In this document: piece by piece, positions 4,541 to 4,617 of the stretch
Position numbering within the stretch: position 1 is the first letter of the stretch
Layout: each line of letters starts with the position of its first letter
Source of the DNA: Escherichia phage SKA64
Strand: one strand, 5' to 3'
DNA length: 64,000 nt
Sequence record: OM362897.1
Made by a program: the position numbers and the translations under genes
Notes under the pieces: generated by a model
The model's database searches: none
What the model saw: only the letters and a program-made list of their open reading frames with translations
Told to the model about the DNA's origin: nothing

Positions 4541-4617
4541 GGGACTCGGCAGGATTCGATACCTGCAATTCCAGAAGCCTCTTGGCTACTAGGGGTTTAC
4601 CTTAACTCTACAAGTCC
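4541..4617 (-). tRNA. tRNA-like element, identity unassigned (8-nt T-loop)
   Basis: Acceptor GGACUUG/CGAGUCC and T-stem GCAGG/CCUGC with loop UAUCGAAU. Anticodon arm not resolved by hand. Confidence 0.3.

Follow-up and report, generated by a model that had tools for sequence, protein, structure and literature searches.

In the complete genome of phage T5 (AY543070.1) the interval 33877-33949 is annotated as rna3, a 'putative tRNA-like RNA'; the corresponding wording is 'RNA3' in AY734508.1 and 'tRNA-like RNA with unknown functions' in NC_042564.1, which holds the tRNA region of BF23. The T5 RNA reads UUCUGUG UAGAGUUAAGUAAACC GGUAGC CAACCA GCUAUC AUU GCUGA CAUCGAAU UCAGC CACAGAU ACCA. A full-text literature search for the function of RNA3 found no paper on it, and to our knowledge the tRNA-like RNAs of phage tRNA clusters have stayed uncharacterised for two decades.

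Processed acceptor/T-arm mimics that lack a working anticodon include mascRNA (from MALAT1), the plant t-elements and the tRNA-like domain of tmRNA. The element described here may share with these the concept of a mimic recognised by tRNA-processing enzymes; however, they have no sequence relation to it, their Rfam models miss it, and the organisms and contexts differ. In phage T4, the species 1 and 2 RNAs (rnaC and rnaD) lie in the tRNA cluster and are released from the precursor that also holds the tRNAs (PMC2330249). Like the present element, they are small RNAs without assigned function inside a phage tRNA transcription unit, and rnaC terminates in the T-arm-like sequence CCGGGUUCGAAUCCCGG; however, at 119-139 nt they exceed it in length, their T-loop has the normal 7 nt and, unlike RNA3, they have been shown by experiment to be stable. 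Homology with rnaC and rnaD was rejected, since the joint covariance model R1 (see below) gives them at most 8.9 bits (E>=0.25), equal to ordinary T4 tRNAs.

The locus analysed here lies in a stretch of 64,000 nucleotides from Escherichia phage SKA64 (OM362897.1), hereafter the window, which is ~99% identical to the Escherichia coli phages vB_EcoM-P3322 and ESCO37 and belongs to Phapecoctavirus (Stephanstirmvirinae). Between two tRNA genes it carries a 77-nt element, and we consider it reasonably probable that this encodes a non-decoding tRNA-like RNA belonging to the RNA3 family of T5 and BF23, with the processing proposed below.

Architecture of the element

The element runs from 4617 to 4541 on the minus strand, including the discriminator C4541, and reads GGACUUG UAGAGUUAAGGUAAACC C CUAGUAGCC AAGA GGCUUCUGG AAUU GCAGG UAUCGAAU CCUGC CGAGUCC C. 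The coordinates and features given in an earlier note on this DNA were correct, and the strand is now fixed as minus, as for the whole tRNA cluster (3579-5501), in which ARAGORN lists ten tRNAs and Rfam adds a tRNA-Tyr and a Ser-like tRNA. The acceptor stem pairs GGACUUG (4617-4611) with CGAGUCC (4548-4542) over 7 bp, one U.G among them, and the T stem pairs GCAGG (4566-4562) with CCUGC (4553-4549) over 5 bp; both helices had been recognised before and are seen again in the minus-strand sequence and in the minimum-energy fold. Across homologues, both sides change in 5 of the 7 acceptor pairs and in 4 of the 5 T-stem pairs. The T arm (4549-4566) carries the 8-nt loop UAUCGAAU (4561-4554), which is as previously claimed and is kept in the homologues. 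After the 3' strand of the acceptor stem (4542-4548) come the discriminator and AGCUUU, and no CCA is encoded at this point (CGAGUCC-C-AGC).

The D-like block UAGAGUUAAGGUAAACC (4594-4610, minus strand) is nearly invariant across phage families and forms invariant columns in alignments A1 and A2. By its predicted pairing it may fold as a weak GAGUU/AAACC hairpin, and in the C13 homologue a 4-bp D-like hairpin is present in the minimum-energy fold. The anticodon arm is replaced in the minimum-energy fold by a central hairpin (4571-4592, minus strand; CUAG-U-AGCC / AAGA / GGCU-U-CUGG), whose 9-position stem consists of 8 pairs (4 + 4) flanking one U.U and ends in the tetraloop AAGA. The hairpin AGCC-AAGA-GGCU that had been reported here is present, and it extends to CUAG.AGCC/GGCU.CUGG (4592-4571), longer than first noted. 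The linker AAUU (4567-4570, minus strand) is the equivalent of the variable region, and its AUU is invariant in all homologues in alignment A2.

The minimum-energy fold gives the acceptor, central and T helices at -26.6 kcal/mol (z=-2.67; 3 of 200 shuffles as good), and this calculated energy, taken alone, is modest evidence. Each lineage of homologues, folded separately, arrives at these three helices again, the z-scores lying between -2.6 and -4.0, and a chance origin of the fold is ruled out by the covariation among homologues together with the E-values of the models, both described below.

With canonical tRNAs (RF00005) the element shares the 7-bp acceptor stem, the 5-bp T stem, overall length and place in a tRNA operon. 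However, canonical tRNA has a 5-bp anticodon stem and a 7-nt loop (U33, anticodon, purine 37), where the element has the 9-position stem and the tetraloop AAGA, and the element further differs in its 8-nt T-loop and its short irregular D-like arm. Tools for tRNA finding, proposed earlier as a check, identified no normal tRNA with a defined anticodon: ARAGORN reports no tRNA in 4541-4617 and none for the T5 or BF23 copies, and at E<=10 no Rfam family of any kind matches 4541-4617, the T5 and BF23 copies likewise being without a match. On these grounds a normal tRNA and a known Rfam family were both rejected (T5 RNA2 and RNAIV are likewise absent from Rfam), as was a tmRNA, for which there was no ARAGORN tmRNA call and no Rfam match. 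A coding sequence was rejected because no ORF spans 4541-4617.

The claim that no anticodon could be assigned has stood, since ARAGORN and Rfam reject the element and the homologues keep a central hairpin without a 7-nt loop, BF23 excepted. The central loops differ by lineage (AAGA, AUUU, ACA and CAACCA); the single 7-nt loop, CAAACCA in BF23, has no U33, so that no copy has a usable anticodon loop. That the element is a genuine chargeable decoding tRNA with an aberrant anticodon arm is therefore scarcely credible: the acceptor and T stems are intact and the T5-like copies encode ACCA, as such a tRNA would have it, but the loop is not conserved between lineages, the discriminator varies between C and A among homologues, and no copy is accepted by ARAGORN or by the Rfam tRNA model. 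A specific aminoacylation identity was rejected by inspection only, on the variable discriminator and the lack of G3:U70, and charging by a specific synthetase appears unlikely because the discriminator varies. With the covariation described below, these comparisons show the element to be a tRNA-shaped RNA structure that is under selection and unable to decode.

Kinship with RNA3 of T5 and BF23

In BLAST searches with the Asn-element-Thr stretch, the matches in T5-like phages continue through tRNA-Asn into the element, and with the T5-like version as query the same place is found marked as misc_RNA rna3 in the GenBank records of the T5 sequencing laboratory. With T5 RNA3 as BLASTN query, the element is the best match in the window (E=1.5e-4), with 72.7% identity over 66 nt. 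The covariance model R2, for which nine T5-like RNA3 sequences alone were used, was applied to the window and five loci; it returns the element as the top match in the 64-kb window (39.3 bits, E=1.4e-8), gives 44 bits for Justusliebigvirus copies and 48 bits for a metagenomic copy (L072), and matches none of the window's true tRNAs at E<=10. Because the T5-only model finds the element while the tRNAs of the window fail, we take the likeness to be homology and not general tRNA likeness. The joint model R1 scores the element at 75.1 bits (E=9e-19), and family members at 50-77 bits (61 or more when the match is uncut) are separated by a clean gap from tRNAs, which reach at most 27 bits. The element thus very probably belongs to the RNA3 family of T5 and BF23 and, as such, is an unannotated member of a kind that has been on record in T5 for about twenty years.

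Shared with the T5 and BF23 RNAs are the GUAGAGUUAAG(G)UAAACC block, the AUU linker and the three helices, an 8-nt T-loop YAUCRAAU on a 5-bp stem, and the position directly 3' of tRNA-Asn, with a gap of 7 nt in the window and of 2 nt in T5 and BF23. The combination that serves as a test of family membership, i.e., the invariant D-like block UAGAGUUAAG(N)UAAACC and the AUU linker before the T stem, is found in the window element. Comparison with the clusters of related phages, which had also been proposed as a check, gave homologues that share the acceptor stem, the T stem and the 8-nt T-loop and have a variable central hairpin.

The two groups differ in several respects. The first acceptor pair is G1-C72 in the window, whereas T5-like copies have a U.U mismatch; the central hairpin has 9 positions and a tetraloop as against 6 bp and the loop CAACCA, and the D-like block of the window copy has one extra G relative to T5-like copies. 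Downstream lies tRNA-Thr in the window but an ORF in T5-like phages, and the genomes are of different types, a myovirus (Stephanstirmvirinae) as opposed to T5-like siphoviruses. At the 3' end, T5-like copies all read CACAGAU-ACCA, whereas the window copy has no encoded ACCA. That Stephanstirmvirinae copies are without the ACCA end kept in T5-like copies is counted against the explanation we favour; the absence of ACCA is a lineage difference and not a curated family criterion. No homologues of T5 RNA2, RNAIV or BF23 RNA 2H were found in the window.

Covariation and constraint

The homologues comprise 17 distinct sequences in four lineages, i.e., a long-hairpin Stephanstirmvirinae type, a JohannJBalmer type, L072 and the T5-likes. 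Under the three-helix structure 91% of cells are paired, compared with 30-41% after a shift of the 3' partners by 1-3 columns, and 19 of the 22 base pairs have changed on both sides with pairing kept across the 17 sequences, a result reached by none of 500 shuffles. In alignment A2 the central part was placed by hand to fit the hairpin, with N padding. The MAFFT alignment without manual changes yields the acceptor and T stems, and the same compensations, in RNAalifold; in a gap-free T5-only alignment 5 pairs covary, of which 3 belong to the central hairpin, and this hairpin is fully (100%) paired there. The stem of this hairpin has 6 bp in the T5-like and JohannJBalmer types and about 9 positions in the long-hairpin types, and within Phapecoctavirus every observed difference sits in the central hairpin or the trailer.

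The invariant parts are the unpaired ones, namely the D-like block (G7-UAG..UUAA...AAACC), the AUU and the T-loop, which is kept as the 8-nt YAUYRAAU in 17 of 17 sequences. Because this elbow and core are invariant, the helices are conserved in their pairing only and the central arm is unconstrained at its tip, the pattern of substitution points to the acceptor/T/D-like core (the tRNA elbow), and not to an anticodon, as the constrained surface.

These patterns bear on the possibility that the element is a decaying, functionless tRNA pseudogene, carried in a cluster that is spread by recombination or by endonuclease-driven homing. Homing endonucleases act in phage tRNA regions (PMC2330249), endonuclease genes occur in related clusters, and other degenerate tRNA-like pieces are found in phage clusters (3664-3733 in the window; Klebsiella phage 05F01). 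The viable phage T5Mos, moreover, carries a ~8-kb deletion of the tRNA region, 30661-38625 (PMC11464382), and T5 RNA3 (33877-33949) falls within it and is therefore dispensable in laboratory hosts, which fits a pseudogene and is counted against the explanation we favour. However, neutral decay would break helices, where we find compensated pairs and near-complete pairing; loop and core sequences stay invariant while stems vary, and no lineage has lost the unusual 8-nt T-loop. We therefore hold decay to be highly improbable.

A constraint on the DNA itself was also considered, in which the block or the altered T-loop would be the target of an endonuclease or DNA-binding protein, or an immunity variant, with the RNA fold incidental. 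The T4 endonuclease SegB recognises the T-arm DNA motif GGTTCRANTCC and has a preferred site in a tRNA-Asn gene (PMC2330249), the extra A gives GGTATCGAATCC, which would destroy a SegB-type site, and endonuclease genes are located in these tRNA clusters. Such a target, however, does not predict compensatory changes over three RNA helices, and no endonuclease gene adjoins the element in the window, so that we rate this reading as extremely unlikely. For the invariance of the D-like block taken by itself, recent horizontal transfer or DNA-level constraint could be responsible instead of RNA function.

Distribution

Members were found in about 122 records of Phapecoctavirus (including phAPEC8) and Justusliebigvirus (including phi92), where no RNA feature appears among the rows inspected and one spurious CDS does, and in about 350 records of T5-like phages (Tequintavirus, Epseptimavirus), where rna3 is annotated only in AY543070.1, AY734508.1 and NC_042564.1. 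The spurious CDS is that of vB-Eco-KMB37 (OR525700.1), in which 643-792 is entered as a 'hypothetical protein' that covers tRNA-Asn in its 3' half and the RNA3-like element entirely; it is almost certainly spurious, was rejected as a coding interpretation of the element because it overlaps tRNA-Asn as well, and is accompanied in the same record by several further short CDS that overlap tRNAs.

The covariance models were applied to retrieved loci, and the wider search for the family relied on patterns scanned against IMG/VR, metagenomes and GTDB genomes. Beyond contigs of T5-like phages and Stephanstirmvirinae, these scans gave one true divergent copy, on L072, an unannotated GC-rich 1.7-kb metagenomic contig (Ga0209635_10185237). 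The GC-rich RNA3-like element at 1492-1567 on its plus strand scores 48-70 bits and is flanked by two ORFs, and the 1.7-kb fragment carries no tRNA. The protein encoded upstream belongs to a family of siphophage-like early regions on contigs of about 47 kb, and within this family (419 homologues) three related phage-like contigs are without an RNA3-like element. Matches in GTDB genomes and about 70 looser IMG/VR matches were rejected as chance, their stem complementarity being at random level; none of the loose pattern matches combined an acceptor stem of at least 6/7 with a T stem of 5/5, and they serve as a negative control.

The order tRNA-Asn then RNA3 is kept in both phage families, and its sharing by siphoviruses and myoviruses probably reflects horizontal exchange of an Asn-RNA3 module, so that there are few effectively independent lineages. 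In relatives the slot after tRNA-Asn is occupied differently, by a normal tRNA(CAU) in Proteus Novosibvirus and by unrelated tRNA-like pieces in Klebsiella phage 05F01, and both cases are counted against the explanation we favour.

Further features of the tRNA clusters

Several other features of these clusters were recorded. A second unannotated tRNA-like element lies at 3664-3733 (minus strand) between tRNA-Ile (3736-3809) and tRNA-Met (3579-3657), and is probably the 'first' such element implied by the title of the earlier note. Its acceptor strands are UCCCGU/ACGGGA, the first pair being U.U, and its T arm (GCUGG-UUCGAAU-CCAGC) is normal; the central stem AUAAG/CUUAU closes a loop of about 10 nt, and the 3' end, AU-ACC, resembles that of T5 RNA3. 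Neither ARAGORN nor Rfam calls this element, the two RNA3 models match it weakly (21.0 and 20.5 bits), and the z-score of its fold is -2.76.

The tRNA-Asn(GUU) at 4625-4710 has a 12-nt hairpin in its variable region, a class-II-like shape unusual for tRNA-Asn. The same long-arm type occurs in EC122 and C13 (both Tequintavirus) and in Epseptimavirus T5-likes, and an ordinary short-arm tRNA-Asn precedes the same RNA3 in T5, BF23 and GSW6; because both forms precede the same RNA3, we conclude that the tRNA-Asn was swapped beside a constant RNA3. Two long-arm tRNAs of the minus strand are missed by ARAGORN, namely a tRNA-Tyr(GUA) at 4720-4804 (39 bits on the Rfam tRNA model) and a Ser(UGA)-type tRNA at 5029-5115, for which the best Rfam match is tRNA-Sec at 37.4 bits (threshold 47); elsewhere these are labelled Tyr, 'tRNA-Pseudo-GTA' and Ser-TGA. 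The tRNA(CAU) at 5430-5501 (minus strand), called Met in some records and Ile-CAT in another, has the T-loop AUCGAAA (A at 54 and 60) as against the usual UUCGAAU.

A 273-nt spacer at 4187-4459 (minus strand) follows tRNA-Thr and precedes a promoter-like site for tRNA-Gly. Minus-strand ORFs of at least 30 aa are absent from it, JohannJBalmer has a 107-aa ORF at the equivalent place, and the spacer might hold another non-coding RNA. In Klebsiella phage 05F01 (LC483177.1), three unannotated tRNA-like pieces surround tRNA-Asn at 2432-2496, 2597-2644 and 2646-2720: a 65-nt piece without D arm, a 48-nt minihelix-like piece ending in CCA, and a cloverleaf of 75 nt whose 'anticodon' loop has 9 nt. 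None of the three has significant similarity to RNA3.

Proposed transcription and processing

The placement between tRNA-Thr and tRNA-Asn given earlier is confirmed, with spacers of 6 and 7 nt. The upstream neighbour is the long-armed tRNA-Asn(GUU) (4625-4710, minus strand), whose CCA ends 7 nt before the element, and tRNA-Thr(UGU) (4460-4534, minus strand) begins 6 nt after it. On the coding strand no promoter-like or terminator-like site lies between these neighbours, and because the spacers are also short, co-transcription with tRNA-Asn and tRNA-Thr is likely from the arrangement of the genes. The nearest upstream match to a sigma-70-like promoter is at 5124-5153 (minus strand; 10 of 12 matches), and it is weak, as the count of such sites equals the shuffle expectation.

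The acceptor/T stack is the structure that RNase P needs. The element would be transcribed inside a polycistronic tRNA precursor, Ser-Ser-Tyr-Asn-element-Thr, and RNase P would cut at its 5' end, a step proposed on the grounds of an intact elbow and 12-bp acceptor/T stack. The 3' end would arise from RNase P cleavage of the downstream tRNA-Thr together with 3' trimming. CCA, if any, would be added by the host CCA-adding enzyme; enzymatic addition would be needed because the Stephanstirmvirinae copies encode none, unlike their neighbours and T5 RNA3. The predicted product is an L-shaped RNA of roughly 77 nt that would be unable to read codons.

The same steps could be the whole purpose of the element, if it acts as punctuation that presents sites for RNase P and 3' processing and so frees neighbouring tRNAs or mRNAs, the excised RNA being inert. 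Precedents are mitochondrial tRNA punctuation and the t-elements, and the parts kept as helices, i.e., the acceptor/T stack, match what RNase P needs. T5-like phages have RNA3 flanked by tRNA-Asn and a ribosome-binding site with its ORF, and the L072 copy lies between two ORFs on a fragment free of tRNAs, both of which are places where punctuation would be of use. In the window, however, it would be redundant, as the two flanking true tRNAs already supply cleavage sites; it leaves the invariant 17-nt D-like block and the AUU linker unexplained, and relatives of the L072 phage do without the element. We regard punctuation as a rather unlikely account of the element.

Possible function and implications

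For the RNA itself, as a non-decoding member of the RNA3 family, we prefer a mechanism in which a tRNA mimic would occupy a tRNA-recognising factor while itself staying out of translation; this factor could be a processing enzyme or a tRNA-binding protein of the host or of a defence system. This mechanism is favoured because the constraint places the functional surface in the acceptor/T/D-like core; that such a mimic engages a tRNA-recognising factor is put forward tentatively, as possible but doubtful. The labels in AY543070.1, where RNA3 is only 'putative' and RNA2 and RNAIV are 'stable', are counted against the favoured explanation as a whole.

Phage tRNA clusters are now studied as counter-defence tools. 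T5 overcomes the PARIS system by means of its tRNA-Lys, and its tRNA-Tyr gives protection from the toxin of the Eco7 retron (PMC11464382). A more speculative proposal, which we judge distinctly unlikely, is that RNA3-type RNAs form a phage class of anticodon-less tRNA decoys, whose elbow (the D-like block and the 8-nt T-loop) would neutralise a tRNA-targeting defence factor or hijack a processing or modifying enzyme, the module being exchanged between T5-like siphoviruses and phi92/phAPEC8-like myoviruses for a host-dependent advantage that is invisible in laboratory strains.

With the present comparison a 'putative' annotation becomes a defined RNA family, common to two unrelated phage families, with compensated helices and a constrained elbow. 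Adding this family to RNA databases would provide an annotation for roughly 120 phi92/phAPEC8-type genomes that now have nothing, or a spurious ORF, at this locus. Should the element be merely a processing spacer, it would be an ordinary feature of these clusters; if it is truly a decoy or a processing hijacker, it would represent a new type of RNA-based anti-defence factor.
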